From a virus (lineage: Duplodnaviria; Caudoviricetes), in the IMG/VR virus record IMGVR_UViG_3300024268_000035, positions 37,522-101,521 of that record: 64,000 bases of DNA; one strand, 5' to 3'. Below the pieces are notes generated by a model. That model was not told where the DNA came from. It saw only the letters and a program-made list of their open reading frames with translations, and made no database searches. Positions within the stretch are counted from its first letter, which is position 1. Each line of letters starts with the position of its first letter. Positions 3,492 to 31,929 of this stretch are shown piece by piece. A program made the position numbers and the translations under genes.

Positions 3492-5075
3492 TTAACCTTC
3501 CACAGTCTTAAAGAACACATCTGTACGGCGGTTCTTTTCACTGTCTTGTGCGGAAGGGTCTACGATCATTTTTGTATTGCCGTTACCAACAACGATAATA
3601 CGATTTACATCAATGCCATTCGCCACGAAGAAATTCTTTACGGTCTTGGCACGTTCTTCGGAGAGCTTACGTCCGGCATCAGTATCATCATAAGAATTGA
3701 TGTTACCTTCGATCTGAATTACAGTGCCGTCCAGAGTTTTTGCGATTTCCACGAATTCACTGAGAGTTGCATTTGCTTCTGCATTGTCAAGGAACTTTGC
3801 GGTATTGATGACAAAGTTTACGGTTGCAGACTTGGAAAGCAGTGCCTGTGCATTCTTAATGGATTCCTTCTGTTCTTCTGTGATCTCAAAGGCTTCCTTC
3901 TCTGTGATAGAAGAATAATTATCGGAAAGCGTCTTGATATAGGAAGTATCGAACAGGGTTGCTCCAAGGGTTCTGTCTACAGTTTCACCGATGCTTTCCC
4001 AGATGGTACACATATCAGCATAAACAGTGGGGCAGTCATTTTCCAGAGCGGAGAGATTTTCTGAATATCCCATCAGACCGGCATCGCCGCACATGGAGAG
4101 GATTTCTTCATCAGAAGAGTCAGCGAACATGGGCATAACCTTACGGATGTATTCAAACTCAGTGGTGTACATATCTTCGGCTTGGAAGATACCATCAATA
4201 AACTTGGACACTACATCCGGATGTGCCGATGCGAAATCGGAACGGAAGAGGATACCGTCCATGATGAGTTTGTTGGAAGCGGTAGTGTCAAACAAAATGT
4301 GAGAATTGGTACTGTTTTCGGCGTTGGAAAGATACGGCTGCCATGTTGCTGCAACATCAAGGCTTCCGGCAAAGAACGCCTGACCAGTTTGTTCTGCGTC
4401 TTCCAGCAGAATAAGGTTGTCGATGATCTTCTGCTTATCTGCGTCGGGGAGGTCTGATTTATTGACAAACCAGATAACAAGAGACTGGGCTTCACTGAAT
4501 TTGGGAACACCAATCTTGGCATCTACGAGACTTTCGATGGATTTGAACTTGCTGAGTGCGATGATGCCATCACCACCGTCAGAGAAGTTAGTGTACACAG
4601 GAATTACTACATCCAAACCGGCATCGGTGAACTTTCCGGAAAGGAATGCTGTACGGTTGAGAGTATATCCGGCTGCGTTAAGATCACCCTTAATCAGCGC
4701 ATTACTGGATGCTTCTGCATCGTTGATAATATTGATATTGACGGTGATTCCAAGTTTATCAAAAATGGAACCGGGCTGAGTGGTCAAACCACCATTTGCG
4801 TCGATGATCGGCTTCCAACCAATCCATTCATCCAGTGAAAGATTGATAGTCGGATCTGCGGTATCCGTCTTGTTTACTGCGGGAGTGTTTGAAGTCTTAT
4901 TGTCAGTATCGGATGTGCCGATAATGGAGTCCAATGTATCGCTTCCGAAACTGGGGATAAGATCGGGCTTATGTTCTTCAATGTAGCGATAGCCGAAGAA
5001 TCCGGCGACACAGAGAATAGCGATGATGATTACGAACAGGACGACGCGACCAGCGGTGGTCAACTTGAGTTTCAT
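3492..5075 (-). CDS. membrane-anchored NitT/TauT-type ABC substrate-binding protein fused to an OmpA-like C-terminal domain
   Basis: N-terminal TM; WIGW, DGGDGI, ATWQP motifs; C-terminal LSEERAKTV...NRRTD. Confidence 0.8.
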   Translation of the reverse strand: MKLKLTTAGRVVLFVIIIAILCVAGFFGYRYIEEHKPDLIPSFGSDTLDSIIGTSDTDNKTSNTPAVNKTDTADPTINLSLDEWIGWKPIIDANGGLTTQPGSIFDKLGITVNINIINDAEASSNALIKGDLNAAGYTLNRTAFLSGKFTDAGLDVVIPVYTNFSDGGDGIIALSKFKSIESLVDAKIGVPKFSEAQSLVIWFVNKSDLPDADKQKIIDNLILLEDAEQTGQAFFAGSLDVAATWQPYLSNAENSTNSHILFDTTASNKLIMDGILFRSDFASAHPDVVSKFIDGIFQAEDMYTTEFEYIRKVMPMFADSSDEEILSMCGDAGLMGYSENLSALENDCPTVYADMCTIWESIGETVDRTLGATLFDTSYIKTLSDNYSSITEKEAFEITEEQKESIKNAQALLSKSATVNFVINTAKFLDNAEANATLSEFVEIAKTLDGTVIQIEGNINSYDDTDAGRKLSEERAKTVKNFFVANGIDVNRIIVVGNGNTKMIVDPSAQDSEKNRRTDVFFKTVEG

Positions 5076-5821
5076 TACTTAGATCCTCCATATTTCTTTT
5101 TGAGATTTTCAAGATATTCGTCATTGGCGAGTTTGGCTGCTTGCTGTTCGGCGCGTTCCACCTTGGTGGAGGTACGGTTTTCATGAACAATCCGTGCGCC
5201 GTCCACTTCCTTCTTCAAGTCACTGGAACCTTCCATGACGGAATCCAGAAGTTTCTTGGTGGCTGTATCCTTTTTGAGTTCATCCAGATCTCCGAGGATG
5301 TCTTTGAGCTGGTCGTTCATACGCATTCCGTTGACGGTTTCTTTCTTGAGACGCTGAGTTTCACGAAGTTTCTTGCCGAGTGTGTCGTATATCTGCGTAG
5401 CATCAGCTACCATCGGCTTCAGACGAGCGATACACTCCCTCTTTTGTGCGAGTTCCGTCATGAGTTCTGAACGGCTTTCAGCATAGATTTCAGCTTCCTT
5501 CATCTTGCCGTTCCTTACAAGGTTTTCACAAGCGGCTTCCGCTTCCTTGATTTTGTTTTCAAGAATTTTGGCGGCATCTTCCGCGTGTTTCAATTCTCCT
5601 GAAAGTTTGTTTAATGTATCGGAAGCGCGGTTGTATTTTGCGCGAATTTCTTCGATTGCTTCACTAAAGATTGCCGCCGCGCCTTCAGGAGTTTTGGCGG
5701 CATCTTCAACGAAAACATTCAGAAATCCGCTGACAAGTACCTTTAACTTCTTGCGGACTTCCGGGAAGAGAATAAGAGCGAGAAGGATAATAGCAAGGAT
5801 AATTCCGAGAATGATTTTCAC
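5075..5821 (-). CDS. PspA/IM30-like coiled-coil membrane protein
   Basis: N-terminal TM followed by a long coiled coil; operon context. Confidence 0.55.
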   Translation of the reverse strand: MKIILGIILAIILLALILFPEVRKKLKVLVSGFLNVFVEDAAKTPEGAAAIFSEAIEEIRAKYNRASDTLNKLSGELKHAEDAAKILENKIKEAEAACENLVRNGKMKEAEIYAESRSELMTELAQKRECIARLKPMVADATQIYDTLGKKLRETQRLKKETVNGMRMNDQLKDILGDLDELKKDTATKKLLDSVMEGSSDLKKEVDGARIVHENRTSTKVERAEQQAAKLANDEYLENLKKKYGGSK

Positions 5822-6363
5822 TTGGATTCCTCCATTCCTTTACAGAATTCTATGAGATTTGTGATGGACTTTACCTCATCTGTAATAGAGGACTGAGCGG
5901 CAGAAATGATATCTTCTGCTTCCTTGATCTTGATGTTGGCAGATTCGATTGCCTGTTTCAGTGCTTCAATATCCATCTTGGCGATTTCGATTTCTGCTGT
6001 ACGTTCTCTGGTAATCTTAGATTCTGCAGCTTTCAGCATCGACATTCTGGTATCACCATCAGAAAGCAGTGTTTCTACCTTGATACCAGACACCGCCAGA
6101 ATTCCGGCGATAGTAGCCTGTTTTGTTGCCGTAGGCATTTCCGGCGGGAGCGTTGCGATAAGAGCCTGTACGGTAAAGATAGAATTTGTCTTATCTGACA
6201 GGTCATTTTGATCGTAGATTTCGTCGATAATATTTGCAGGAGACTCGATATCCGCATCAACTGCAATCGGGACTTCTTCTGTCGGTTCTTCCTGTACGGG
6301 AACAGGTACGGTAGTCTCCGCTTTATCGTCTTCAAATACGATAAGCTTCTTTAATAATCCCAT
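5818..6363 (-). CDS. hypothetical coiled-coil protein
   Basis: RBS GGAAAGGAAAG before ATG 6363; operonic. Confidence 0.7.
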   Translation of the reverse strand: MGLLKKLIVFEDDKAETTVPVPVQEEPTEEVPIAVDADIESPANIIDEIYDQNDLSDKTNSIFTVQALIATLPPEMPTATKQATIAGILAVSGIKVETLLSDGDTRMSMLKAAESKITRERTAEIEIAKMDIEALKQAIESANIKIKEAEDIISAAQSSITDEVKSITNLIEFCKGMEESK

Positions 6364-6383
6364 TTTCTTTCCTTTCCTTTCCT

Positions 6384-6971
6384 TTATGAGAGCTTGATTA
6401 TATGTTCGCACATCCTCACAGCTTCCTCTTCGCTGTGTGTTACCATGAGGATTGTGTTTGCGGTTTCATGATGGACTTCCATGATAAGGTTCTGCATCTT
6501 TGTTCTGGTTACATCATCCAGTGCGGAAAGCGGTTCGTCCATCAGCAGGTATGTAGGCTTGACAAACAGGACTCTGGCAAGAGCCAATCTTTGCTGCATA
6601 CCGCCGGAGAGTTCCGTTGGATATCGATCAAGATAATCACCAAGACCAACTTCTTGCAGGATTCGCTCTGCTGTTGGAACAAGTGACTTGCGTTTGCTGC
6701 GAGTTCTTTCAGCAATCAGGATGTTGTCTCTGCAGGAAAGCCAATCGAAATTGGTGTATCTCTGGTGCATCATATAGATAAGCTGTCTGTCTTTTCTGAT
6801 GATTTCGCCTGAGAGTGGTTTATGCAGTCCAGCAATGGTTTTCAGCAATGTGCTTTTTCCACAGCCAGATTTTCCGAGTATTCCGTAAATCTTCCCATTC
6901 TCAAATGTGAAATTCAACGGATCGGTGAGAGGGTGATCGTACCCAACCGATAGATTATTCAATGTTATCAT
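6384..6971 (-). CDS. ABC transporter ATP-binding protein (TauB/SsuB-like)
   Basis: Walker A GKSGCGKST, LSGGMQQR, LLMDEP, VTH. Confidence 0.95.
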   Translation of the reverse strand: MITLNNLSVGYDHPLTDPLNFTFENGKIYGILGKSGCGKSTLLKTIAGLHKPLSGEIIRKDRQLIYMMHQRYTNFDWLSCRDNILIAERTRSKRKSLVPTAERILQEVGLGDYLDRYPTELSGGMQQRLALARVLFVKPTYLLMDEPLSALDDVTRTKMQNLIMEVHHETANTILMVTHSEEEAVRMCEHIIKLS

Positions 6972-7728
6972 CTTTGTATCTCCACTGAAATGTTTTCCGG
7001 ATCAGCATCTTTCCGATACGATCAAACAGATAACTGAACACCACAATCGTGAGGATTGCTGCAAACACAATGGCGGTTTTACCTCTGGCGGCTCCTACAT
7101 TGATGATGAAGCCAAGACCTTTTATGGCGTTCACTTCTTCCACAACAGCAACATACGTCCATCCGATTCCATACATCATCAGGAACGAATTCATAATAGA
7201 GGGCAGTGCGGCTGGCAAAAGAATTTCTGCAATAATTTCATGTGGTCGCATTCCGATTGACTTCCCGGTATCAATCAGATCCTGCGGCACATCTTCCATG
7301 CACAGTATGGTTGATGGGAGAAGATACACAAAGGTTGCAAGGAACAGAAACGAAATTTTCATAGTCTCATCTATTCCAAACCACAGGATCAGAAGGGGCG
7401 AAAATGCTGTAACTGGAATGTACCTCATTGCAGATACGATTGGTGTGATCGCATCTTTAACAGGTTTTACTGCACAAATCAGTAATGCAAGGGGAATTGC
7501 TACTGCCATCGACAGAATGGCGGACACAGATATACGAGCGAAAGAGTAAAGCAAACCGGGAAGTAGTTGATTGGTTTTAATAAGTCCAACCAATGCAGAT
7601 ACAACGGATAACGGGGAGGGGATAAAGAGCGGCGTTGTCATGGCGGATCCAATCTGCCATATTATCAGAAGAATAATAACTCCCATTGTTTTCTTCAAGA
7701 TATTGCAGCCGCTTTTACCGCCGAGCAT
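6955..7728 (-). CDS. ABC transporter permease (TauC/SsuC-like)
   Basis: Multiple TMs; RYIP..A..PLLILWFG; EAA-like loop; start uncertain. Confidence 0.9.
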   Translation of the reverse strand: MLGGKSGCNILKKTMGVIILLIIWQIGSAMTTPLFIPSPLSVVSALVGLIKTNQLLPGLLYSFARISVSAILSMAVAIPLALLICAVKPVKDAITPIVSAMRYIPVTAFSPLLILWFGIDETMKISFLFLATFVYLLPSTILCMEDVPQDLIDTGKSIGMRPHEIIAEILLPAALPSIMNSFLMMYGIGWTYVAVVEEVNAIKGLGFIINVGAARGKTAIVFAAILTIVVFSYLFDRIGKMLIRKTFQWRYKDDNIE

Positions 7729-7997
7729 TAGGACTCCTTTTTCTGTTCCTTCTGCTCCGCCTGTTCTTTCTTGTATGTACAGTCGGCAGGTTTCAGGACA
7801 GCTACATAGTTGTCTGCGTTTACATAGGTGGACAATGGCTTAACTTTGCCCTGAGGCTGATTTCTGCGGCAGCCGCGTTTGTGGAAATTCAGAAACTTAC
7901 AGCCGTTACAGGTAATGGACTTGTCCACCCAGTAACTACCCGTTTCTGTTTTTGCCTCGATTTTGGGTTCATTCTTGATCTTTTCAGTCTTTTCCAT
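7728..7997 (-). CDS. hypothetical protein
   Basis: ORF with AAGGAG RBS; CxxC. Confidence 0.65.
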   Translation of the reverse strand: MEKTEKIKNEPKIEAKTETGSYWVDKSITCNGCKFLNFHKRGCRRNQPQGKVKPLSTYVNADNYVAVLKPADCTYKKEQAEQKEQKKES

Positions 7998-8021
7998 GAT
8001 TGTTTACTCCTTGTTCAGAGA

Positions 8022-8276
8022 TTATGATGTTACTTCTTTGAGTTTTCCTATTCGGAAAAAGTACGGCAAGGATGTTGACCCTACCCCCCCATTATCAGGC
8101 GGACTCGGTAGCGGCTTTCCGCACATTGGGCAGTATTTGAACTGAATATGATTACCAGCAGTATCAGAGAAAACATTGGTTCCAAGGCGAATAAACGCTT
8201 TTTTAGGAGCATTTACTGACACAGACGATTCTACCCAAAAGCCTCTCTGCCATTGGCAATATCCGCATCCAATCAA
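8022..8276 (-). CDS. small Cys-rich hypothetical protein
   Basis: GGGAGGTG RBS; CGYC and FKYCPMCG. Confidence 0.55.
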   Translation of the reverse strand: MIGCGYCQWQRGFWVESSVSVNAPKKAFIRLGTNVFSDTAGNHIQFKYCPMCGKPLPSPPDNGGVGSTSLPYFFRIGKLKEVTS

Positions 8277-8450: not shown

Positions 8451-9401
8451 TTATCTTGTCGGGAAGAAGTAATCCACAAACTTTCGATAAGACTGTAAGC
8501 GTTTATTTGCCACAGAAACATTGATGTATTTTTCGTTAAAAACCTTGCTGATAGTTTCCATATCACCTTGACGGATTGTTCCGTTTGCACATTCATACAG
8601 ATACGCTCTGTGATATATCCCAGACCAATATACCTTATCATAATGGAATAGGTTAGCGTCCTGATCCGGGTCGCTTTTACCGAAATTCCTTATAAAGATT
8701 CGCATGACCTTAGGTTCTTCTATTCTTGCGGATCTTACGGTTCGTAAAAGATAACTGGATTCGACATATTTCAGAGTGATTATTCCTCTGGCAGAAGATC
8801 TATATTCGGTGGCATCCTTATACTCAGTCAAAAAACTCATGATTTTCTGGTTTGGGTATATGTTTTTGTTTCCAACAACAATATGATCGTCCTTGACATC
8901 CGATTTCAACATGGCGATAGCATCTTCTAATTGAACTCCACACCATGCCATATAGATAGCGGCAATTTGTGTAGCAAAAATAGCATCATCTATTCTATCT
9001 GCTGCGTCCAAAGTTGCATCAATGGCATTCTGCAATTCCTGAAAGTTCTTGAAAAAGTTTGCTTCGTAGACCTGACTTGTATCAATATCGTCATATTTTA
9101 TAGATACGAGCAGTTCAATGTTGTCTTCGTTTACGATACCGTATTTCAAAAGGAACTCAAGGTATTTTTTGATACGGCTTTTGTCTGCAAGGAAACCTTG
9201 AATATTGCTTGTGTTCAGATCGGAGATCAGACGAATGAACTCATCTTTGGTATAGCCTTGTTCCAAGGTTTTTTGGTATTTTTGTTCAAAGCGATGCAGG
9301 CGCATCCAGAAATTTTGAACCGTTCGTGCAGATGCTTCGGAATGTGCATTTCCGTTCAGAAGCTTTTCGATATAAAGGTCACGGTAACTACTGTTATCCA
9401 C
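8451..9401 (-). CDS. degenerate tyrosine-recombinase-fold protein (SPbeta MrpR/YopR-like repressor candidate)
   Basis: Integrase-like layout (IYMAWCGV..EDAIAMLKSDV; KVYWSG) without the catalytic R/H/Y set; GTG start at 9401 with GGAGGGG RBS. Confidence 0.5.
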   Translation of the reverse strand: MDNSSYRDLYIEKLLNGNAHSEASARTVQNFWMRLHRFEQKYQKTLEQGYTKDEFIRLISDLNTSNIQGFLADKSRIKKYLEFLLKYGIVNEDNIELLVSIKYDDIDTSQVYEANFFKNFQELQNAIDATLDAADRIDDAIFATQIAAIYMAWCGVQLEDAIAMLKSDVKDDHIVVGNKNIYPNQKIMSFLTEYKDATEYRSSARGIITLKYVESSYLLRTVRSARIEEPKVMRIFIRNFGKSDPDQDANLFHYDKVYWSGIYHRAYLYECANGTIRQGDMETISKVFNEKYINVSVANKRLQSYRKFVDYFFPTR

Positions 9402-9453: not shown

Positions 9454-9482
9454 ATTATACCACACAGAAAACGATTTGTCAA
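9454..9482 (-). promoter_or_regulatory. sigma-A promoter
   Basis: TTGACA-N17-TATAAT with extended TG. Confidence 0.85.
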
Positions 9483-9502
9483 TAGGAGTTAGCAAAATAA
9501 TT

Positions 9503-9943
9503 TTAATTTTTTTCGTATTTTTTCCAAGTAAGATACATGGAGATGAAATACTCTGCAAACTCCGGAGATACACCATGACAATTGTTGGCAATAACATGAT
9601 CGAGAATGTTAGCTATTTCTTCATTCTTTGCACTTACAGGGAAACGCTTGCTTACAGATTCACCGGATACTGTTGTAACAAATAAATCTGCATAGGGGCG
9701 GACATACTTTTTTTGGATATGAAATCCAATATGTAATTCGGCATCAGAGACTATTTCTTCGTACACGTCGGTATAGATGTTCGGTACGGTTCCGCTGGCA
9801 AGAGCCAACTGTACTGCTTCATACAGTACATCATCCCAGAGTTTTTTATGACATTTGAATACGAATCGCTTGGGATTAACGCTGATCGTATCCAAGTCAA
9901 CCGCTGAGATCGGTTCGTCCCTCATACCATTATTGATTATCAT
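9503..9943 (-). CDS. hypothetical protein
   Basis: GGAGG RBS; ATG at 9943. Confidence 0.7.
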   Translation of the reverse strand: MIINNGMRDEPISAVDLDTISVNPKRFVFKCHKKLWDDVLYEAVQLALASGTVPNIYTDVYEEIVSDAELHIGFHIQKKYVRPYADLFVTTVSGESVSKRFPVSAKNEEIANILDHVIANNCHGVSPEFAEYFISMYLTWKKYEKN

Positions 9944-9972
9944 GGTTCTGCCTCCAATTTCATTATTATGTC

Positions 9973-10001
9973 TTGACAAAAGAGAAAATATGAGTTATAA
10001 T
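9973..10001 (+). promoter_or_regulatory. sigma-A promoter for the repressor operon
   Basis: TTGACA-N17-TATAAT. Confidence 0.85.
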
Positions 10002-10037
10002 ATATCCGAAAAAGATAATATATTCTCGGTTGCTCTT

Positions 10038-10066
10038 ATTATAGCACACAAAAGTGTTGCTGTCAA
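10038..10066 (-). promoter_or_regulatory. sigma-A promoter for the leftward operon, facing the repressor promoter
   Basis: TTGACA-N17-TATAAT with extended TG on the minus strand. Confidence 0.85.
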
Positions 10067-10074
10067 TAGGAAAA

Positions 10075-10090
10075 CGATAAAATATTATCG
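10075..10090. promoter_or_regulatory. palindromic operator CGATAA-AATA-TTATCG
   Basis: Identical copy at 31116-31131, also just upstream of a leftward -35. Confidence 0.7.
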
Positions 10091-10108
10091 CAAATTGCGG
10101 AGGTTTTT

Positions 10109-10486
10109 ATGGATTCAATTTTATTTCAGAGAATACGAAAATTATGTAAGGATAGAAATATCACAATCAAGAAAATGTCAGAAGATCTTGATATTGGCAC
10201 GTCTCTGATCCGAAAATGGAAGACTACAACATCTCCATCCATTGATAAAATAAAAACTATTGCTGAATACTTTGATGTTTCGATTGACTATTTGATTGGA
10301 CGTACCGATATCGAACAGCCGCTTGAAAAATTCATTGGCGATAAAGATATCATATCTATCCAAAGAGCAAGGAACAGAATGTCTGATGAAGATCGTAGCC
10401 GTATGATGAATAGTTTACGTGCTACATTTGATAAAGCGTTCAGTGAAGAAAGTGAAGAATCAAGCGGAGACGACGAAGAAGAATAG
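10109..10486 (+). CDS. XRE-family HTH repressor (ImmR/CI-like)
   Basis: IKKMSEDLDIGTSLIRKWK..SPSIDKIKTIAEYFDVSIDYLIG. Confidence 0.9.
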   Translation: MDSILFQRIRKLCKDRNITIKKMSEDLDIGTSLIRKWKTTTSPSIDKIKTIAEYFDVSIDYLIGRTDIEQPLEKFIGDKDIISIQRARNRMSDEDRSRMMNSLRATFDKAFSEESEESSGDDEEE

Positions 10487-10516
10487 TATATTGTATTTAT
10501 CCAAGAGATATTTAAG

Positions 10517-11191
10517 GTGCGAATAATGATTAGATATCAGTATATTTATAATCAGGTGCTACAGATTTATAAGCAAATGGAAAACATTGAGTTTCCGATT
10601 GAACCATCCGACATTATTGCACGACTTCCGAACTGCAAGTTAATGACATATGCGAAATTTGCAAAACTGAATAATTGTTCCGTTGAAGATGTTGCGGCGT
10701 TATGCGAAAGCAGTTCTGGATGTACACATTACGATATTGCCAACGACAGATATTTGATTCTGTGGAATAATGATCGATCTGATAACAATGTCTCTGGAAG
10801 ACGACGCTGGACAAAGGCACATGAACTTGGTCATGTAGTCCTCCGACATCTTCCTCTTATGACAGAACCTAAGATCGCAGAAGAAGATGAAGATTTCTTT
10901 TGGGATGAACGTCCAACAGAAAACTTAAATCATATTTCTACCGCTGCTTTTGAGCAGGAGGCAAATGTATTTGCAGCAACGCTCCTGTGTCCGATGCCAT
11001 TTTTTGAAATGATGGAAATTGAATCGCCGGATGATATTCGCAGTGTGTTCGGTTTGTCCGTATCTGCGTCAGAAAACCGGTGGAACGAATATCAGAAATG
11101 GAAACGCTCTCATGTAAAAACTGCATGGGAAAGTAATATGCGTAAAATTCTCACACAAAAGGATCCGCTGTTCCATATGTACAAATCGTGA
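10517..11191 (+). CDS. ImmA/IrrE-family metallopeptidase (anti-repressor)
   Basis: RRRWTKAHELGH and EQEANVFAATLLCP; adjacent to the XRE gene. Confidence 0.9.
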   Translation: MRIMIRYQYIYNQVLQIYKQMENIEFPIEPSDIIARLPNCKLMTYAKFAKLNNCSVEDVAALCESSSGCTHYDIANDRYLILWNNDRSDNNVSGRRRWTKAHELGHVVLRHLPLMTEPKIAEEDEDFFWDERPTENLNHISTAAFEQEANVFAATLLCPMPFFEMMEIESPDDIRSVFGLSVSASENRWNEYQKWKRSHVKTAWESNMRKILTQKDPLFHMYKS

Positions 11192-11212
11192 GCCTACAAA
11201 TCTGCTCCCCAT

Positions 11213-11446
11213 TTAAGGGGAGCTTTCTTTGTTTGCGGGAATGGGTTTAAGCGTTACGGATCCGTCCTTGGTATTGAATTCTACGATGATATGGTCACGG
11301 CTGGCAAGTTCGCGCAGCTTTTTTAAGATTCTGTATGTTTTAGAATCCCACCGACCATCTTTCCGGCGTTTTCCGATGATACCGCATCCATCAAGACACA
11401 GTTCGTCGTAGATAAGTAAAATTTCATTCTCCATCTGTATTACCAC
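11213..11446 (-). CDS. hypothetical protein
   Basis: ORF in operon; start uncertain. Confidence 0.55.
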   Translation of the reverse strand: MVIQMENEILLIYDELCLDGCGIIGKRRKDGRWDSKTYRILKKLRELASRDHIIVEFNTKDGSVTLKPIPANKESSP

Positions 11447-17365: not shown

Positions 17366-17481
17366 AAATGACCTCCGTGTTTTTCTCTTATTACAACTAA
17401 CTATTTTGCGGAAGGGAAATTAACCGAATTTCTGAAATTTCTGCAAAAAAAAAGAACGCCGGGTTCATCCAGCGTCTTTAC

Positions 17482-17697
17482 TCATTCGTATATAAAATTT
17501 TCTCTGCCGACATATTCGCCATCGACATAATCTTCATCGTTTACTCCGGAATACCATGTCAGTTCTCCATGCTTTTCCTGCTTGGCAATCAGCTTCATCA
17601 TGCAGTCTTCTTCATCGAAGCCGCCTACTGTGATTTCTTCATCGTCTGCATATCTTCCGACCATCATCCACGGGAAGCATAATTTTACTTTTCCCAT
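17482..17697 (-). CDS. hypothetical acidic protein
   Basis: GGAGGG RBS; overlaps the upstream stop. Confidence 0.65.
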   Translation of the reverse strand: MGKVKLCFPWMMVGRYADDEEITVGGFDEEDCMMKLIAKQEKHGELTWYSGVNDEDYVDGEYVGRENFIYE

Positions 17698-18191
17698 ACG
17701 CCCTCCAGACCGAAGGTAAAACGGATTGCGGAATCCTTGATACCGGACATGAAGACGGAATCTGCAAGAATGTTCATGGCAGAAAATACCCGCAGTTCCT
17801 TACCACGAAGGGAAGCCAGACGGCGGATTTCGATGGTGATAACGGCATTGGGACGGTTCTTTGACAGCGGTTCGATTTCGATACCGGTGACTTCCATGCT
17901 GTTTGCTTCCAACCACTGTGCTGCCTGCTTGACCTTGTTATATCTCTGCATAACGGAGAGGTTGGCTACCTTGCCGCTGAAATAATCGTCGGAGAGAATC
18001 CGATCCAGTTCTTCCGGGGTGAAGAAGTCACGAACGTCTACGTCCGCTTCGCGGGATTTATTGATTTTGTCGTTGTAGTCTGCTTCTGCTTTCTGTTTGG
18101 CGGCTTCGATCCGCTGACCCATGTTCATGTTGTTCTTAGAAAAATCCACTGCAAGCACCTTGCCTCTGTTCATATTCATTCGCAACTCCAT
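17685..18191 (-). CDS. hypothetical protein
   Basis: 168-aa ORF in gene train. Confidence 0.7.
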   Translation of the reverse strand: MELRMNMNRGKVLAVDFSKNNMNMGQRIEAAKQKAEADYNDKINKSREADVDVRDFFTPEELDRILSDDYFSGKVANLSVMQRYNKVKQAAQWLEANSMEVTGIEIEPLSKNRPNAVITIEIRRLASLRGKELRVFSAMNILADSVFMSGIKDSAIRFTFGLEGVWEK

Positions 18192-18214
18192 TATATCATA
18201 AATTTAATTTGATT

Positions 18215-18460
18215 TCAATGTTTTGTCTGCATTCTCTGTTTCCGGAATGCTTCTCTGCGGTTGGCTTCCGCTTCGATTTCGTACAGTTTTCTTTCGATAA
18301 CAGCAACGGAGCCATATCGCTCCAGACTGTTATTTCTCCACCAATTCTGAAAATCCTTCTGGAATACTTTACACGTTTTTCCATCCGTAAAGACAGCGAC
18401 CTGACACGGTGTATTATACATGGTCGGTATCCGAATCTGATATATCTTATGTAGTTTCAT
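18215..18460 (-). CDS. hypothetical protein
   Basis: GAGGG RBS. Confidence 0.6.
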   Translation of the reverse strand: MKLHKIYQIRIPTMYNTPCQVAVFTDGKTCKVFQKDFQNWWRNNSLERYGSVAVIERKLYEIEAEANRREAFRKQRMQTKH

Positions 18461-18467
18461 GATTCCC

Positions 18468-18905
18468 TCACAGTCTGTATGGAGCTACTGCCTGCAAAAC
18501 TTTTGCTCTGGGGTTATTCTTGACTGGCGTATAAACCGCTTCGCCATTGCTGAATACAGCACTGCAGAATACTTCTTCAAAACCGTACTGGTCAGCCATC
18601 CGACTCAGAATTCGATTGATCTTGTTTGTCTCACTGGTATGACGGCGGATTGCAACGCTGCGAAACATATCGAAGTAGTACCGGCAATCATCGTTATCCA
18701 GTTCATCCAGATCGTAGTTTTCTTCTACATAAAACTGGATACCATAATAATGACCACTCTCTACCGAAATCTTGTGAAAGAGAAAAGAGTGATTCAGTTC
18801 TTCCAGAGCTTCCTCTATATCGCGGACAAGGAAATAGTCTTCCTCATCGTAATCACGAATGAACAGATTGAAATTGTCCATCTTTTTGAAATTTGCACAT
18901 GACAT
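18468..18905 (-). CDS. hypothetical protein
   Basis: GAGGTG RBS right after a promoter copy. Confidence 0.75.
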   Translation of the reverse strand: MSCANFKKMDNFNLFIRDYDEEDYFLVRDIEEALEELNHSFLFHKISVESGHYYGIQFYVEENYDLDELDNDDCRYYFDMFRSVAIRRHTSETNKINRILSRMADQYGFEEVFCSAVFSNGEAVYTPVKNNPRAKVLQAVAPYRL

Positions 18906-18974
18906 AATATCACCTCTCTATTACAACTAACTATATTTCTGCGGAACAATTAACCTGTCCGGAAGAATATTTTC

Positions 18975-19208
18975 TTACCCGCGATGGAGTTCAGAGGAAT
19001 CAAAATAGACGATGATTCCATCGTCTGCTTCCATTTTTGCGGTAGTATGAGAAACGCTGCGGATGATCCCGGTGATGAATTTTCTGCGTCCCAGAATCAT
19101 CATTGCCTTTTCACGGGAAATAGGTTCGCCGTGCAGTTTATAGGTTGTCTGTCTTTGGTGTAAAGCGTCCTCCATAGGATGTTGGCTGATTTGTTCTTCA
19201 CTTACCAT
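18975..19208 (-). CDS. hypothetical protein
   Basis: Overlapping ORF in gene train. Confidence 0.55.
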   Translation of the reverse strand: MVSEEQISQHPMEDALHQRQTTYKLHGEPISREKAMMILGRRKFITGIIRSVSHTTAKMEADDGIIVYFDSSELHRG

Positions 19209-19390
19209 ACCTGCTTCCAGCCTTTCTGCTTTACAGTTTTGTTCAGTTCTTCTTCACGCTTGTCTGCGGCTTCCTGTTCGCTATCGTCCGGATAATCGGA
19301 AACATCCAGATCGACAACATCTACTTCGATTTCACAATCGGCATACACAGCCTGTACCATGCCGCCTTCCACCTTGATAATAATTTTCAT
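19202..19390 (-). CDS. hypothetical protein
   Basis: GGAGGG RBS; IIIKVEGGMVQAVY N-terminus. Confidence 0.7.
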   Translation of the reverse strand: MKIIIKVEGGMVQAVYADCEIEVDVVDLDVSDYPDDSEQEAADKREEELNKTVKQKGWKQVW

Positions 19391-19648
19391 TTTGCACCCT
19401 CCTGATTTTGCTTTTTATATAATTCGATATACAGTGGCGAATCTTCACCAGCACAGTTGAGTTCAAGTTCGTCAAATACCTCTCCGTCAATTATGCCTAC
19501 AACATCCATATCTCCGTTATAAGACATCGTTTCTTTTAGGATTTCGATCAACTTGCTTAATTTCATAATTATAACTCCTTTGGATTGACAGATAACAGAA
19601 TACCGCCCATCGTAGATTCCGACAGGCGGCGTTCTGTTTTACTTCTGT

Positions 19649-20575
19649 TTACTTTACTCCGACCAGTTCAGCGGTACGATCCAGCAGTTTGTGACCGTCC
19701 ATGATCCGGTTCCAGTTGTTTGCGCGGTAGTCCTGCGTCTTGCGGAGCGGTTCGGAGTGTGTTACCATATCACTCATGGCATTGACAACACCCCATGCAG
19801 TGTTCAGGTACATAGCGATGTCAGGACGAAGGTAGCATACCATAAATTCTTCTTTTGCTTTCTGGGCAGTAGTCTTCCTGCGTTCGGTATCGTTTTCATC
19901 AACCGGGAACATTTCATCCAGAATTTTGTTCAGCTCATCGTCGGTGACTCTCTTGTTAGCGAGTTTCTCTGCGTATTCGGAAAGCTCATCCATATAGGTA
20001 TCTGCCAGTTCCAGACAGATTCTTGCTTCCTGCATCTTCTGGTTGATGTCGCCGACGTGTTTGGTAGACCACTGACGACGGGCGGTATTCAAGGCAAGAT
20101 TCAGGGTATTATTGCATACCACTCTGATGGGTGTCATACAGACGCGGATCGCACCGGAACCGTCGTGCGTATTGGAGAAACAGAGGTAAGGTTCCACTTC
20201 ATCGTCGATCACCTTGCGGGTAGGCATCTTGGCAAGGAGCCAGATTTTTCTGCCGTCCTGTAGGCTGCCTGCGGTTTCGTATCGAACGTCTCCGCCGACA
20301 AGTTCATCAGTGAAGCTGAAGGCTTCGGTATTCTGGACGATCTGGTATCTGTCGCTGACCACGCCCAGCACCTTGCCATCCGTGCTGCGGACGTTTGCCT
20401 TGAAGTTTTCGATCTTTGCGCCACCGCACACCTGAATGCTGCGCTGCTTTACTTCCCAGTCCAGACCGGCAAGACGGAGAGCGTCTGCGCTGGTGGGAGC
20501 TTCCTGCACCATCGTGCCAAGACCGTGCCACGGAACCTCACGAACATAGAACATAGATTCAACATTTGCTGCCAT
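19649..20575 (-). CDS. DUF932/DUF945-family phage/plasmid protein
   Basis: PWHGLG, AGLDWEV, YQIVQN, YETAGSL..GRKIW, HDGSG, RVVCNNTL. Confidence 0.85.
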   Translation of the reverse strand: MAANVESMFYVREVPWHGLGTMVQEAPTSADALRLAGLDWEVKQRSIQVCGGAKIENFKANVRSTDGKVLGVVSDRYQIVQNTEAFSFTDELVGGDVRYETAGSLQDGRKIWLLAKMPTRKVIDDEVEPYLCFSNTHDGSGAIRVCMTPIRVVCNNTLNLALNTARRQWSTKHVGDINQKMQEARICLELADTYMDELSEYAEKLANKRVTDDELNKILDEMFPVDENDTERRKTTAQKAKEEFMVCYLRPDIAMYLNTAWGVVNAMSDMVTHSEPLRKTQDYRANNWNRIMDGHKLLDRTAELVGVK

Positions 20576-20819
20576 AATTTTATCCTCTCAATTCTGCTTT
20601 TTTTGATTTGGGATTCGATCCCCTATTACAACTAACTGTTGTCATACGGTTTAATTAACCGGATTTTGAGATTTTTTGAAATTTATTTTGCCAGCCAGAA
20701 ATTCTCACCCAGCTTTACAAGGTTGTACTTTTTCTGCATCTGACGGAATTTCTTTTCAGTCGTACAGATGTACGGGTTGCTTCCGTCTGCGAATTTGATA
20801 TGCTGCCAGTTAAAAGGTT

Positions 20820-21308
20820 TCATCCGAAGTCCACATCCTCCTCACACAGAATCATGGAGTAGCTGATAGATGTGATGTACTTGATGTCTGCCATTTTCAT
20901 GAATTTCAGCATCATGTCATTGGCATCGACAGCGGAGATCATGTAACCGCGATTGGTTCCGTTCTGAAGGGTAGCGATTACTGCGAATTTTTCCAGACGG
21001 GGTACTCCTAACTCTGCCAGTTTTTCCGTCAGCTCATCTTCGGAGCATCCAGAAAATATATCGCCTTTACAATACGGGCAAGTGCAAAAGGTATGATATG
21101 CTGTGACTTTCTTATTGCAGAGCTTATCATTGGTGAAATAGTTGCCGCAGGCTTCACACTGGACAATCTTACCTTTTTCAATGGCGTCATCACAGCACGA
21201 CTTACACAGTATGTATTTATCTTCCATACCGGGATTGATTTCGCAGTAACATTCAAAGTTTGCGTCCCTGATGATTCTGCGACAGGTCTTACAAATAAGA
21301 TGGTTCAT
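20820..21308 (-). CDS. Cys-rich (zinc-binding) hypothetical protein
   Basis: Multiple CxxC motifs. Confidence 0.7.
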   Translation of the reverse strand: MNHLICKTCRRIIRDANFECYCEINPGMEDKYILCKSCCDDAIEKGKIVQCEACGNYFTNDKLCNKKVTAYHTFCTCPYCKGDIFSGCSEDELTEKLAELGVPRLEKFAVIATLQNGTNRGYMISAVDANDMMLKFMKMADIKYITSISYSMILCEEDVDFG

Positions 21309-21320
21309 CTTTTACCTCGC

Positions 21321-21515
21321 TTATTTTTCATAAAGGTAATTGCCTTTTGCGTCTTCGACGATGATGATTTCGCCTTCGATGTTTTCCGCTTCACCAAAGT
21401 CTGCGCTGTCCCATTCTTCTTCGGCTTTTTCCTTTGCTTCTTCAAGGTCTTCGGCTTCAACCTCAGCCACATATCTGGCTTCGATTTTATAGGTAACATA
21501 GAATTTCTTTTTCAT
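21321..21515 (-). CDS. small acidic hypothetical protein
   Basis: AAGGA RBS; VEAEDLEEAKEKA. Confidence 0.7.
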   Translation of the reverse strand: MKKKFYVTYKIEARYVAEVEAEDLEEAKEKAEEEWDSADFGEAENIEGEIIIVEDAKGNYLYEK

Positions 21516-21589
21516 GATGATTTCCTTTCTGGTTTTGTTTCTATTATAACTAACCGCTGAACGATCCGATAATTAACCGGAATCTGAAA

Positions 21590-21784
21590 TTATTTTTCTT
21601 TGATTTCGATATGGAGAACGCCGTCCTTGACGGAAAGTTCCGATACCTTACGGTGGTCAAGTCCGGTATAATCCAGAAGCTCCATTGCCGTACCTTCAAA
21701 CATGATACGGCGGGATTTCTTGTTGATAAGTACGACTTTCTGATCCGGGTTCCCAAGGATCATTGTCAGATCATAAAGTTTCAT
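21590..21784 (-). CDS. hypothetical protein
   Basis: GGAGG RBS; ATG 21784. Confidence 0.6.
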   Translation of the reverse strand: MKLYDLTMILGNPDQKVVLINKKSRRIMFEGTAMELLDYTGLDHRKVSELSVKDGVLHIEIKEK

Positions 21785-21895
21785 AGGGCAACCTCCATTT
21801 GTAGTTGTATTTATGGGGTAGGGTTTTTGATAACGGAAGCCCTCCAAAACCGCAATAGCTGCATCTCTGGCACCTCCCATCAGGATTTGATGTTG

Positions 21896-22201: not shown

Positions 22202-22261
22202 TGTAAATCCTCCTTGATGTGTTGTCCACCTATTACAACTAACTGCCGATCATGGCGGAAA

Positions 22262-22672: not shown

Positions 22673-22712
22673 GGGTATCTCCTTATGTATAAATATACAG
22701 TATTTATGTATA

Positions 22713-23858: not shown

Positions 23859-23921
23859 CCAGTATCACCTCCTATTATAACTAACTGCCGTCAATACAGA
23901 TAATTAACCAGAAAACAAAAA

Positions 23922-23947
23922 AGCGGGAAAGATTTTGCCTTCCCGCT
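23922..23947 (-). terminator. intrinsic terminator
   Basis: AGCGGGAA/TTCCCGCT hairpin followed by a T-run on the minus strand. Confidence 0.65.
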
Positions 23948-23951
23948 ATTC

Positions 23952-24170: not shown

Positions 24171-24182
24171 ATATACCTCCTG

Positions 24183-24581: not shown

Positions 24582-24591
24582 GTGTTTCCTC

Positions 24592-28855: not shown

Positions 28856-29053
28856 TTAAAATTCAAGTACAATTTTGTTTGTGACCAGCAGGGCGATCCC
28901 GGTGGGGATCATGAATACAAGACAGGTTCCGTCTTTATCTTCCGGCGTTTCGCCATTGGAACACATCCAAACTATCAGGGCGCAGAGGGCGAGAATGCCC
29001 AGCCCCATGAGCTTCTGAAGAATCAACCGCTTCCAGTATGTTCTATTATCCAT
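28856..29053 (-). CDS. small two-TM membrane protein
   Basis: Two hydrophobic segments. Confidence 0.65.
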   Translation of the reverse strand: MDNRTYWKRLILQKLMGLGILALCALIVWMCSNGETPEDKDGTCLVFMIPTGIALLVTNKIVLEF

Positions 29054-29324
29054 TGTTTACAGACTCCTTCCATTCTTCCGATCCGATTCTTATCCACCAG
29101 AGCGGCGCAATGTAAACGCCTTCTTCACTCTCCAGTATGCCGATCCCAATTTCGCTGCCTTCAAAGTCTTCACCGGACAGCCAGAGCGATCTACCGTTAT
29201 CCAATACAAGATGTATTTCCATACAAACCCATTCAGCCTTCAGGACTTTCCGTGTTACTGTTCCATCAGTGACGAAAACGGCGCGTCCTGCTTCCAGTGC
29301 TTCGGGGATTTCATGCCATTTCAT
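29046..29324 (-). CDS. hypothetical protein
   Basis: GGGAGG RBS; ATG 29324. Confidence 0.6.
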   Translation of the reverse strand: MKWHEIPEALEAGRAVFVTDGTVTRKVLKAEWVCMEIHLVLDNGRSLWLSGEDFEGSEIGIGILESEEGVYIAPLWWIRIGSEEWKESVNNG

Positions 29325-29398
29325 TCTGTCTTCTTCCTCCCTGCTTCCGGTCATCCGCTCCCAGCCTGATTGACTGGGGCGGCGTTCCGTTCTTTTGG

Positions 29399-30178
29399 TC
29401 AAGCGGCTTCAAAGTCTGTTATCAGACCTGCGGCGCGTCCTGCTTCCTTGATCTTCTTCAATCTCTTGCAGATTGCTGGTTCAGAGATACCGACCATCTG
29501 GGCAATCTCCTTGCTGCTGTAACCGTCCCGGCGACCTTCAATGATGATTCTGTCGATCTCGTCGCGGCTGTTGATGAAGTCAGCCAGCATCACACCAGTG
29601 ACGGCGGAGGCTTCCGTGTTATCCTTGCGGCTTGTCGCCATCTCGTCGATATACTGCACATCGTCGCCGTTTTTGTCCTGCACCGTATGAACACGGGCGC
29701 GGATGTGCTTGACCTCTGCACGGTACACCGCACGGATAGAATACAGGCTTGCACGGTACACGAGCTGCACCAGTGAAATATTGAGCTTCCCGGATTCTTC
29801 GCGGCGTTCGTTGATCCTTGCCAGATTTCCCGGTTCCATCATCTGCATGAGCTTCAGCCATGCGTCATTCACAAAACCGTCAAGATCATTGTTGCGGAAA
29901 AACCATGCTACAGACTCGTTATACTCGTTATAGTGATCTTCCGTGCTGTGGGCGATCTCGTCCTTAGCGGCGCGCTTGACGTTTGCGCGGAGGAACTGCA
30001 TTTGCTGTTCGCCGGTCAGGGCGTTCCAGCTTGCAATGATTCTTTCAGGCTGGTTCTTTTCATGCGCCCATGCCATCTTCAGGCATTCGCCGAACGTCTT
30101 TTCGCCGTCTTCCTGATCCCGGAAAAGCTCCCACGCCATACGCATGATAGACTTCAGATCGTACTTTTTCATTTTCAA
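29399..30178 (-). CDS. phage sigma70/ECF-like sigma factor
   Basis: Region-4 HTH (RRDGYSSKEIAQMVGISEPAICKRLKKIKE); region-2-like DLDGFVNDAWLKL. Confidence 0.7.
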   Translation of the reverse strand: MKMKKYDLKSIMRMAWELFRDQEDGEKTFGECLKMAWAHEKNQPERIIASWNALTGEQQMQFLRANVKRAAKDEIAHSTEDHYNEYNESVAWFFRNNDLDGFVNDAWLKLMQMMEPGNLARINERREESGKLNISLVQLVYRASLYSIRAVYRAEVKHIRARVHTVQDKNGDDVQYIDEMATSRKDNTEASAVTGVMLADFINSRDEIDRIIIEGRRDGYSSKEIAQMVGISEPAICKRLKKIKEAGRAAGLITDFEAA

Positions 30179-30222
30179 AACTCCTTTTCATTCATGCGCT
30201 GACGCGCCGTTATAATTGGTTT

Positions 30223-30278
30223 CCTGCGACGGGCTGCGCCCGTTTCGGTTAGTTACCGGCTAACCATCGTCAGGCAGG
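30223..30278 (-). ncRNA. hammerhead ribozyme (type I)
   Basis: CCUGC-CUGACGA-U-GGUUAG(loop)CUAACC-GAAA-CGGGC(GCA)GCCCG-UC^GCAGG: catalytic core and three stems present. Confidence 0.8.
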
Positions 30279-30279
30279 T

Positions 30280-30546
30280 TCATTCAATCGCGCCACGCTT
30301 CTTCAGATCATAGAAGCACCAACGGTTTACGCTGTTTTCGTCCATCGTTTTGAATGCGTCTAACTCTGCGTCAAACTGCGCTTTATACCGGGCGATTTCG
30401 TCCCGCTGTTTCGTGATACTGGTGCCGAAATAGCTATAGCCAGCTTCCAAATCCGCCGCCATGTTACGCGCCATAGTTGCGATCATGCTCTGTTTATCTT
30501 CATACCAAAGATCAAACCAGTCGTTTCTGTCGGTCAGTCGTGCCAT
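30280..30546 (-). CDS. hypothetical protein
   Basis: GAGGG RBS. Confidence 0.7.
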   Translation of the reverse strand: MARLTDRNDWFDLWYEDKQSMIATMARNMAADLEAGYSYFGTSITKQRDEIARYKAQFDAELDAFKTMDENSVNRWCFYDLKKRGAIE

Positions 30547-30629
30547 TGTAAAGCCCTCTCTTTCTGTGTGTCGGTCAGGTTGGCGGCATTGCTGCCGCCG
30601 TTTACCTGACGGATTGATTAGTTAATTCC

Positions 30630-30974
30630 TTAGATGAAGTACATTGCGCCGTTGTATTCAAGGGCTATTGCTTCCTGCCCCATTTCGTGCTTCAGCTCAA
30701 CGCACATAGAAACGATGTCGTCAATGTACTTTTCAGCGTCTGCGGTATCACAGTATGCAAATACCATCGTAGTTCGTTCTGCGATCAAGTCGCCGTTGTT
30801 GGCTACCCAATAGCCTGCTGCCTGTGTAGCAGTGGCACCGCCGAATGCGTTTGACAGAGTACGCGCCACACGCTCAACAAAAGGCGTGTTGTCGATTTCT
30901 TCATTGATGTTTACCGTCGCGGGAACGTAGACGGTGATTTTGCTTTTCAGGGGGATCATGTTTGCCAGTTTCAT
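30630..30974 (-). CDS. hypothetical protein (DUF3574-like)
   Basis: TVYVP...FGGAT..GYWV..E pattern; first gene after the early promoter. Confidence 0.65.
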   Translation of the reverse strand: MKLANMIPLKSKITVYVPATVNINEEIDNTPFVERVARTLSNAFGGATATQAAGYWVANNGDLIAERTTMVFAYCDTADAEKYIDDIVSMCVELKHEMGQEAIALEYNGAMYFI

Positions 30975-31079: not shown

Positions 31080-31108
31080 ATTATACCACACTCGCCGCCT
31101 AAAGTCAA
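31080..31108 (-). promoter_or_regulatory. sigma-A promoter for the left-arm early operon
   Basis: TTGACT-N17-TATAAT with extended TG; operator at 31116-31131. Confidence 0.85.
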
Positions 31109-31929
31109 TAGAAAACGATAAAATATTATCGCTTTTAGGCTTAAAAAGTCACTAAATTAGCAAGACTTTATTTGTGCATTTTGCTACATCTTGACTATGC
31201 TTGCCAGCCTGACAGAGTGAGCCAAAACAGACCGGAAGACAGCCAGACGGCGACCGCTGCACCAGACCTTCAGCAGATGCAGAGACGGCAGAACGTGCGG
31301 AGGAATCGACCCCAGCGGACAACATGACGCACGGAACGCTGGAGAATATGACAGCCGAAAGGAAGGAAAGCAAGCACCCACGGAGAGCCAGAGCTTCAGA
31401 ACGTCGTGAGAGATGGAACGCGGGAGGAAGCGAGGAAGGAGAGGAAGCTGGAGAGGAGGGGAGAAGGAAGGGGAACGACTGAAGAACAACAACACTTCAG
31501 CCCGTCCCGATCTCCAGCCCGAACGTCTGCCATTATCCGCCGTCCGTCCACCGTCTGCCAGCCTGACAGAGACAGAACAGGACGCACACGACAGAACCGC
31601 TTGAAATCAATTCCGCTTTTCAAGAGTATGCAGAACCCGTTGAGAAACGACCCATTCAGCGTGTCAATAAAGGCAATAGGCAAGTTAATATTTATAGGCA
31701 TTCCCGATCCGCAGAAATGGCGGATAGTACCCCCTTCTCCACGCCTCATCTTCGATTTTCCGCCTCGACACCACCACCTTCATCAACGCATCTTTCTCAA
31801 GATCTTGTACCCCTACGGACAAATACCCGAATACGATCTTATATTGAGAAAACACCGTTTAACAACGTGAAATAATCGAAGTTCTGTTCTCTAAAGGAAA
31901 TAACTAAACAAAAATATTGTATAAATCTA

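Follow-up and report, generated by a model that had tools for sequence, protein, structure and literature searches.

A predicted XRE/ImmA immunity switch with head-on promoters in large temperate gut phages

Genes, promoters and putative operators at the switch

We examined 64,000 nt of viral DNA (Duplodnaviria; Caudoviricetes), positions 37,522 to 101,521 of record IMGVR_UViG_3300024268_000035, here called the window, and within it a putative immunity switch comprising an XRE-family repressor gene, an ImmA-like protease gene and two promoters that face each other. The gene content of the window is phage throughout, and the switch resides in a large temperate gut phage of about 100-145 kb. The XRE-family repressor (ImmR-like, 125 amino acids (aa); 10109..10486, + strand) matches Pfam HTH_19 (5.8e-10; 39.4 bits against a cut-off of 30.2) and HTH_3 (3.7e-8) as well as the transcriptional regulators of PHROG 8 (2.4e-23), and its recognition helix reads GTSLIRKW. 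Adjoining it in the same orientation, and beginning 31 bp past its stop codon, is a gene for an ImmA-like M78 metalloprotease (10517..11191, + strand) with a HELGH motif and a Pfam Peptidase_M78 match of 2.1e-8 (34.4 bits, cut-off 22). The true start of this protein may be the ATG at 10526, and a terminator-like hairpin follows the gene at 11204-11223. An earlier, sequence-only reading of this DNA had placed a repressor/ImmA pair here; by its Pfam domains, the pair is real.

All promoters reported here are predicted matches to the sigma-A consensus, scored by matching hexamer bases out of 12, with transcription starts placed 7 nt past each -10. The repressor-protease operon is preceded by P_R (9973..10001, + strand; TTGACA-17-TATAAT, 12/12; predicted start near 10008). 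Facing it is P_L (10038..10066, - strand; TTGACA-17-TATAAT, 12/12, with TG before the -10; predicted start near 10031), so that the two promoters converge with predicted starts 23 bp apart. P_L serves a 146-aa gene (9503..9943, - strand), the first of its operon, and reads on into a gene for a 316-aa integrase-fold protein (8451..9401, - strand) that we call MrpR-like by its modelled fold. The latter gene also has a promoter of its own, P_mrpR (9454..9482, - strand; 12/12), with the AT-rich upstream box TTTTGCTAACTCC. In total, the window holds six 12/12 promoters, three of them within 9454-10066, whereas 300 random sequences from a first-order Markov model had 0.07 on average and 2 at most. 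In a gut metatranscriptome run (X17), a 219-nt contig without differences from the window spans 10008-10226 and begins at the predicted P_R start, which is a weak hint only, since contigs cannot prove a start or a strand; contigs from the same RNA library leave 9914-10007 uncovered, and contigs cannot show absence.

The sequence-only reading had described the two convergent consensus promoters together with a 21-mer repeated far away in the window. Both observations were confirmed, and the 21-mer could be extended to 22 bases. The 21-mer is found exactly at 10071-10091 and 31112-31132 (0 mismatches), with no third match in the window at up to 3 mismatches, and a pair of matches occurred in 0 of 100 dinucleotide shuffles. 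The true repeat, 10070-10091 = 31111-31132, defines repeat family D12; beyond it lies a one-base insertion or deletion, after which similarity resumes through CTATTGAC of the -35 region. At the core of the 22-mer is a 16-bp dyad, CGATAA-AATA-TTATCG (CGATAA-N4-TTATCG), of which the whole 101.5-kb virus record contains only two exact copies.

These two copies and a third, weaker dyad are the putative operators of the switch. O_R (10070..10091) contains the perfect-armed dyad CGATAAAATATTATCG at 10075-10090, which is centred at about -51.5 of P_L and ends 8 bp upstream of the P_L -35; O_R also falls within the P_R leader, immediately ahead of the XRE ribosome-binding site. O_E (31111..31132, dyad 31116-31131), the exact second 22-mer, is centred at about -50.5 of an early leftward promoter, P_E (31080..31108, - strand; TTGACT-17-TATAAT, 11/12, TG-extended), and its dyad ends 7 bp upstream of the P_E -35. 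The weaker dyad, O_L (10013..10028; AGATAATATATTCTCG), belongs to the third member of D12 (10008-10029, 82% identical to the 22-mer). It covers +6..+21 of P_R and +4..+19 of P_L, in the predicted overlap of both polymerase footprints, and together O_L and O_R bracket P_L with their centres 62 bp apart. Under a class-A weight matrix whose training sites include the window's own, the three sites score 24.0, 24.0 and 21.2 against a best of 18.9 in 30 random sequences of 64 kb, and they are the only sites in the window above this random maximum. All three have a GAAAA flank on one side. The loose consensus CGATAA-N4-TTATCG at up to 2 mismatches is unenriched in the window (4 matches, 3.17 expected), so that the argument for O_L comes from where it lies and from its conservation. 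A ATTGCACAAA box upstream of O_E is unenriched as well (9 matches, 9.5 expected). O_L was overlooked by the earlier reading and weighs more for the mechanism than the distant copy.

P_L and P_E belong to a promoter type that recurs in the window. Five promoters share CTATTGAC-N18-TATAAT (9454-9485, 10038-10069 and 31080-31111 on the - strand; 31927-31958 and 45754-45785 on the + strand), where chance would give 0.02. Their -40 to -60 zones differ, two of them having the XRE dyad and the other three not; P_mrpR, one of the three, has an AT tract without CG arms at the equivalent place. Two promoters of this type carry TTTTGCTAA(A/C)TCC (P_mrpR and 45742-45764), a candidate site of another regulator such as the MrpR-like protein. 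As candidate boxes for that protein, TTTTGCTAA..CTATTGACAAA at these two promoters and a ten-copy element described below are leads only. A further 12/12 promoter points rightward (27180-27208, + strand) inside the leftward middle-gene block and precedes a 208-aa reading frame (27284-27910) for which no family match was found.

Conservation of the switch and covariation of the dyad with the XRE helix

The exact 21-mer was absent from the IMG/VR contigs searched (0 matches), among which near-identical records may be missing, and blastn of the switch against cultured phages returned one 56-bp match, inside a repressor gene. Searches with the MrpR-like protein confirmed no locus among viral contigs, and tblastn found no match to it in cultured phages; the XRE protein, used as a single query, recovered only 3 loci from viral contigs and, from species genomes, 4 distant ones at 36% or less. 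A profile built from five family XRE proteins yielded 80 loci. Twenty of these (L056-L075) are full-length relatives with 46-64% identity, and with the window they make up 21 loci containing 17 distinct switch sequences. The other 60 loci (L076-L135), which reduce to 53 distinct upstream regions, formed our outside set, in which many loci come from the same phage groups.

The order P_R, O_L, P_L (on the other strand), O_R, ribosome-binding site and XRE gene is kept in 17/17 distinct sequences. Throughout, P_R scores 10/12 or better and P_L 11/12 or better, all spacers are 17 nt, the two dyads are 62-65 bp apart and the predicted starts 22-26 bp apart. A dyad of the family's own class lies 10-11 bp past the P_R -10 in every one of the 17; between the P_L -35 and the second dyad, 16 sequences have 8 bp and one has 9 bp. 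In a divergent relative (X18), one base is inserted at 10028 and one is deleted at 10035, changes that together leave the O_L to P_L -10 spacing as it was. Among the 38 of 47 differences listed for a DNA variant (X8), none falls within 9590-10593, a result that supports no conservation claim. The 146-aa gene, the MrpR-like gene, ImmA and a methylase-helicase gene are likewise kept in the family. In all 8 family loci examined, a 146-aa homologue stands beside the MrpR-like gene, and P_mrpR is kept in the 8 family loci inspected for it.

The sequence of the dyad changes in step with the recognition helix of the XRE protein, and three classes can be distinguished. Class A (the window and L056-L070) has the half-site CGATAA and the helix (G/A)(T/A)SLIRKW, class B (L071-L074) has CACGA(A/T) and SQYSIG(R/K)W, and class C (L075) has ACAGAA and SSGSIGKW. 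A pairing of the class-C kind is also present in small unrelated phages: L003 (= L085) and L125, with helices STGSICKW and STGSVCKW, carry intergenic ACAGAA-N4-TTCTGT dyads, five of them in L003, a phage with a true integrase, ImmA and a CI-like gene and with no MrpR-like gene. The other XRE relatives usually have 6-4-6 dyads with an A/T-rich centre next to them, and similar helices share a half-site, as do SRNSLYAW and GRNTIYQW, both found with AGCTAA. Because helix and half-site covary, and because the pairing recurs in phages that lack an MrpR-like gene, the XRE (ImmR-like) protein is probably the binder of the dyad, in keeping with the sequence-only reading, which had proposed it as the regulator of the palindrome.

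Head-on promoters are common around such genes. In 39 of the 53 regions of the outside set, the 300 nt ahead of the XRE homologue contain promoter-like sites scoring at least 10/12 on each strand. The promoters face each other in 37 of the 39, their starts being 53-149 bp apart, and diverge in 2; the other 14 regions have no such site on one or both strands. Judged from these predictions, the head-on arrangement seems to be the rule for this XRE subfamily and not special to the phage of the window.

The remote site, the early operon and the neighbouring genes

P_E drives a predicted early operon (29046..30974, - strand) of genes for 114-aa (PHROG 3543), 88-aa, 259-aa and 118-aa proteins. The 259-aa protein is sigma-region-4/HTH-like by matches that are weak and below curated strength (Sigma70_r4_2, 4e-4; PHROG 1740, 4.7e-4). 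Using the first early gene as query, we collected 28 related loci from virus records of 55-144 kb, and a P_E homologue precedes the same gene in related loci. A second matrix, trained on switch sites only, was applied to the 300 nt ahead of this gene and gave 23.7 in the window.

A parallel to the remote site is found in the related 143.8-kb provirus G001. There, CGAGAAAATTTTAGCG at up to two mismatches matches three places and its backwards control none; the three are the early promoter and two switch sites 63 bp apart, 19.9 kb away. Position 4 is G and the centre is AAAATTTT in both the switch and the remote dyads of G001, against T and AAAATATT in the window. Within G001, the remote dyad matches O_R at 14/16 positions when inverted and at 12/16 when direct, which fits a symmetric (dimer) binder and speaks against a promoter module having merely been copied. 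The earlier proposal that one regulator co-controls both leftward promoters is probable on these grounds, given the same dyad at the same offset from both -35 elements and the bases shared within G001. Among candidates that we rejected, class-B dyads 23-24 kb from the switch in G011 and G013 (2 mismatches) coincide with the opening codons of a gene (MKKFV...) and were put down to chance, and none of the class-C dyad candidates in G014 lies at the early promoter.

Early promoters of classes B and C carry short repeats of their own, at the -35 and just before the ribosome-binding site (L162 = G014 7897-8090; L157/L158 = G011, G013; L161 = G012), among them ACGAA(T/C)AAAATC(A/G)TTG, present twice in the G011 and G013 early promoters. 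Such repeats hint that the early operon has a further regulator. The sigma-like gene is the first of this operon in class-B genomes.

Downstream of the early operon with its sigma-like gene, a promoter-like element occurs ten times within 17378-28850, among genes of the - strand. In gene orientation it reads GGTTAATT-N14/15-AGTTAGTT(G/A)TAATAG, and each copy lies just before the ribosome-binding site of a leftward gene. The spacing of its blocks does not fit a standard sigma-A -35/-10 pair, and GGTTAATT...T(G/A)TAATA is conserved in relatives, in the 3 kb that follow the early gene. The ten copies may be promoters of the sigma-like early protein. The early-operon leader (30975-31079, - strand; roughly 100 nt) contains a G+C-rich hairpin between conserved TAAAGGA-type boxes, and the hairpins that relatives have here differ in sequence; for nine early leaders, RNAalifold returned no consensus structure, probably with the hairpins misaligned, and Rfam gave nothing at E up to 1 in 30900-32100. 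Between the divergent promoters P_E and 31927-31958 lie 800 bp without long reading frames (31133-31926), purine-rich and partly G+C-rich (e.g. 31380-31480), which could be an origin or a non-coding RNA.

On the other side of the switch, the 316-aa neighbour (likely start GTG 9401, ribosome-binding site GGAGGGG) was modelled with AlphaFold2 at a predicted local distance difference test score (pLDDT) of 73 from 6 sequences. Foldseek ranked the model closest to SroF-DNA (9rd5, 6.1e-7), YopR (8bj6, 2.0e-6), MrpR (8a0a, 4.2e-6) and SroF-Sar (9rgl, 1.7e-5), with XerA trailing at 2.8e-4 and TM-scores of only 0.38-0.45. In all six aligned MrpR-like proteins, the first catalytic arginine is replaced by Q, T or S after an invariant W-x-G, and E159, R265 and Y305 are invariant, with residue equivalence set by eye and not by superposition. 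This pattern resembles the catalytic-residue pattern of MrpR given in Table 3 of PMC10516654, an article consulted in excerpt. The match to Pfam MrpR_N_CB (8e-4, 20.5 bits) is below the cut-off of 27, and searching PDB sequences with a profile of the protein yielded 0 matches at E up to 1. The modelled fold makes the neighbour MrpR/SroF-like, which supports the label given to it earlier, and sequence-level membership is not established.

The 146-aa protein between this gene and the switch belongs to no Pfam or PHROG family. Its AlphaFold2 model has a pLDDT of 90.8 from 9 sequences; a PDB fold search by two methods gave no match (best Foldseek E 0.07, best VIA-align Z 3.3), and an ESM Atlas search gave no usable match. 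Directly beyond the MrpR-like gene, 3492-7728 (- strand) holds ABC-transporter permease and ATPase genes and an OmpA-domain gene. Because G001 carries the same permease in the same place (L048 5092-6511), the transporter seems to be phage cargo and not host flank. Other genes of the window, within 35061-38761, 40846-43509, 45441-45716 and 48200-50900, include NAD-salvage genes (isochorismatase-like, PRPP-synthetase-like, NAMPT-like and NAD synthase), an HU gene, tRNA clusters with tRNA-like repeats, and a single-subunit RNA polymerase gene (Pfam RdRP 8.7e-16, PHROG 8308 4e-261), which we take to be YonO-like.

A proposed switch, its alternatives and its place among known systems

We consider it reasonably probable that the locus is an XRE/ImmA immunity switch with three operators, competing head-on promoters and induction via ImmA. 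From the sequences, their geometry, their conservation and the helix covariation we infer binding, the sign of regulation, cleavage and promoter interference. The XRE repressor, made together with the ImmA-type protease from P_R, would bind the 16-bp dyad as a dimer at O_R, O_L and O_E. Bound repressor would weaken P_L and P_E, probably by occupying the AT-rich -43 to -59 zone of alpha-subunit/UP-element contact; the A/T centre of the dyad resembles an UP element. At O_L, over both start regions, it would probably impose a second block on P_L and negative autoregulation on P_R. Because the starts are only 22-26 bp apart in the family, and 23 bp apart here, two polymerases could never be bound together, and the favoured promoter would exclude the other. 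A modest handicap of P_L would then let P_R win, and loss of the repressor would let the TG-extended P_L win, shutting off repressor synthesis. Upon DNA damage, ImmA would be expected to cleave the repressor, so that P_L and P_E would fire and P_L would suppress P_R. P_L would supply the 146-aa gene and, by read-through, the MrpR-like gene; the early operon, which includes the sigma-like factor, would be expressed from P_E.

Several observations weigh against this account. O_E and O_R lie upstream of the -35 with centres near -50, which is no classical repressor position, and P_E has this single site only. O_L would block P_R as well as P_L, and in G009-like phages the relative strength of O_L and O_R is reversed, O_L being the stronger. 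XRE and MrpR-like proteins co-occur in every family member that has either and diverge together; covariation within the family therefore cannot separate them, and only the outside examples do. The remote site is not general. With the switch-only matrix, the best score upstream of the early gene is 18.7 in 3 of the 28 related loci, 11.4 in 9 (one good half-site) and 8.8 or less in 16, which amounts to no remote site, and these 16 include the G009-like phages, which have class-A dyads at their switch. The class-B early promoter offers only 8-9/12 dyad matches, overlapping the -35, with a second similar copy before the ribosome-binding site. The single class-C genome (G014) has AGCGCGTCATT three times at its early promoter and no XRE-type dyad there. 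As a family feature, the remote operator proposed by the sequence-only reading is thus not sustained, and it seems to be a sub-lineage in which the XRE protein controls the early promoter directly, most clearly in this window.

The reader of the 22-mer could instead be the MrpR-like protein (8451-9401), acting as a master repressor at P_L and P_E. The model of that protein matches SroF, YopR and MrpR best, its gene is adjacent to the switch, and the same one-sided GAAAA flank stands on all three window sites. MrpR binds the 15-bp SPBRE at ten promoter regions of SPbeta (PMC10516654, in excerpt), and SroF of phi3T reads a long AT-rich box with A-tracts (10.1101/2025.11.27.690993, likewise in excerpt). 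According to the same account, however, SroF sits as a monomer on an asymmetric box of 26 bp, whereas the dyads here are two-fold symmetric 6-4-6 elements. The same dyad type and the same helix/half-site pairing are found in small phages without an MrpR-like gene, the G001 remote site fits best when inverted, the sites number three and not many, and the promoter of the MrpR-like gene itself lacks the dyad. On balance we find this assignment unlikely. A reading that dispenses with a dedicated regulator altogether, the 22-mer being a recently copied strong-promoter module (an UP-like AT tract and -35 context), draws on the continuation of the identity into CTATTGAC of the -35 region, on the five window promoters that share CTATTGAC-N18-TATAAT, on the location of the site at the UP-element position, where P_mrpR also has an AT-rich tract, and on the absence of the remote site from 16 of 28 relatives. 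It is hard to reconcile with the O_L copy, which lies downstream of both starts and could play no UP-element role there, with arms that are symmetric and contain G+C and that change by class with the XRE helix while keeping their position, and with the absence of the dyad from the other three CTATTGAC promoters; we regard it as distinctly unlikely.

The two further alternatives keep the XRE protein as the binder. It might activate P_L and P_E from about -50, and a site upstream of the -35 is indeed a typical activator position; ICEBs1 ImmR is said both to activate and to repress its own promoter. Yet centres at -50.5 and -51.5 are off the usual activator faces, and neither P_L (12/12 with TG) nor P_E (11/12 with TG) should need an activator. 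O_L, moreover, lies over the P_L start, and XRE proteins paired with ImmA are repressors in known cases (ICEBs1, according to excerpts of PMC11318856), all of which leaves activation quite improbable. The sequence-only reading had suggested possible looping, which would here mean a 21-kb DNA loop joining O_R and O_E through repressor multimers. In its favour are the identical sites of predicted high affinity, the conserved C-terminal domain of the XRE family, which could oligomerise, and the HU-like protein encoded by the phage; long-range loops are known for lambda. Nothing we examined requires a loop, however, since site and promoter are arranged alike at both places; most relatives keep the switch without the remote site, and 21 kb is far beyond any phage repressor loop known to us. 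We therefore do not retain looping, which we hold to be highly improbable, and the XRE protein most likely acts locally at each promoter.

A larger scheme can be built on the XRE/ImmA switch by analogy. In phi3T, DNA damage lifts LexA off the promoter of a small antirepressor gene, Sar, which lies one reading frame from sroF, and Sar frees SroF from DNA (10.1101/2025.11.27.690993, in excerpt). The 146-aa protein, under XRE/ImmA control, could likewise be an antirepressor of the MrpR-like protein. In the full relay, the phage-borne XRE/ImmA sensor, with P_L as its main target, would replace LexA, the 146-aa protein would be an antirepressor of new fold acting on an MrpR-like master repressor, O_E would gate the early operon and the sigma-like factor would fire ten middle promoters. 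This chain as a whole we regard as rather unlikely.

The switch shares with ICEBs1 and with ImmR/ImmA-like prophages (LM41 phi2, phi5 and phi12) an XRE gene that adjoins a co-oriented M78 gene and, as in ImmR/ImmA modules, its putative repressor sites lie between the repressor's own promoter and the opposing one. In ICEBs1 PimmR and Pxis diverge (PMC11318856, in excerpt), whereas here the promoters are head-on with starts 22-26 bp apart. The operators here flank the opposing promoter and do not cover its hexamers, an extra exact operator stands at a promoter 21 kb off, and the module includes an integrase-fold repressor-like gene and no integrase, all in contrast to known ImmR/ImmA modules; the carrier is a phage of 100-145 kb and not an integrative and conjugative element or a 48-kb siphovirus. 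For LM41 phi5 and phi12, ImmR/ImmA-like siphoviruses of about 48 kb from Clostridium clostridioforme, software predictions have already led to the proposal of convergent promoters with 186-like interference (PMC11318856, in excerpt). In the literature that we searched, a limited library, we found no experimental study of a head-on ImmR/ImmA switch.

P2/186-type switches also have convergent promoters for two programmes, with possible interference (186 as cited in excerpts of PMC11318856). By comparison with Pfam, the XRE protein seems unrelated to their repressors: its match to Phage_CI_repr (21.6 bits, cut-off 22) reflects general HTH resemblance and falls below the cut-off. Induction here would, unlike theirs, go through a protease partner. 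Start-to-start distances are 35 bp in P2 and 62 bp in 186. Here they are 22-26 bp, and occlusion, not collision, would therefore dominate. The CI/Cro switches of small Firmicute phages such as L003 have the same HTH subfamily (47% identity over residues 5-63), 6-4-6 dyads and head-on promoters, but they place several dyad copies inside the promoter spacers, their starts are 53-149 bp apart, and the homologue in L003 is a small Cro-like protein, with ImmA paired with a separate CI-like protein.

With SroF/MrpR of SPbeta, the region has in common an integrase-fold protein that lacks the first catalytic arginine within a lysis-lysogeny region, and SPbeta, too, has a YonO-like RNA polymerase gene. 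As in SPbeta-like phages (PMC10516654; 10.1101/2025.11.27.690993; both in excerpt), a small adjoining gene would be under a DNA-damage-responsive repressor. Sequence similarity to SroF/MrpR is marginal, however, and the repeated dyad is symmetric, fits an XRE protein and is not SPBRE-like; the damage sensor would be the phage XRE/ImmA pair and not host LexA, and the 146-aa neighbour, unlike Sar, shows no fold match to Sar or others. A duplicated operator alone is ordinary phage regulation. What is particular here is the very short start distance, which makes the promoters overlap, the flanking operators, the exact remote copy and the SroF/MrpR-like company in gut phages of 100-145 kb.

If the proposed switch is correct, it would be a compact and testable design in which two consensus promoters are too close for joint occupancy and one repressor has its sites at their overlap and in the UP-element zone, the same site also giving the repressor remote control of the early operon. 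The three specificity classes found in nature provide ready-made swaps for asking how a common XRE subfamily reads DNA. Should the less likely relay also hold, large gut Clostridia phages would possess a two-repressor relay on overlapping head-on promoters. For the family itself, a correct switch model would mean that an ImmR/ImmA circuit is linked with SroF/MrpR integrase-fold repressors in uncultured gut phages.

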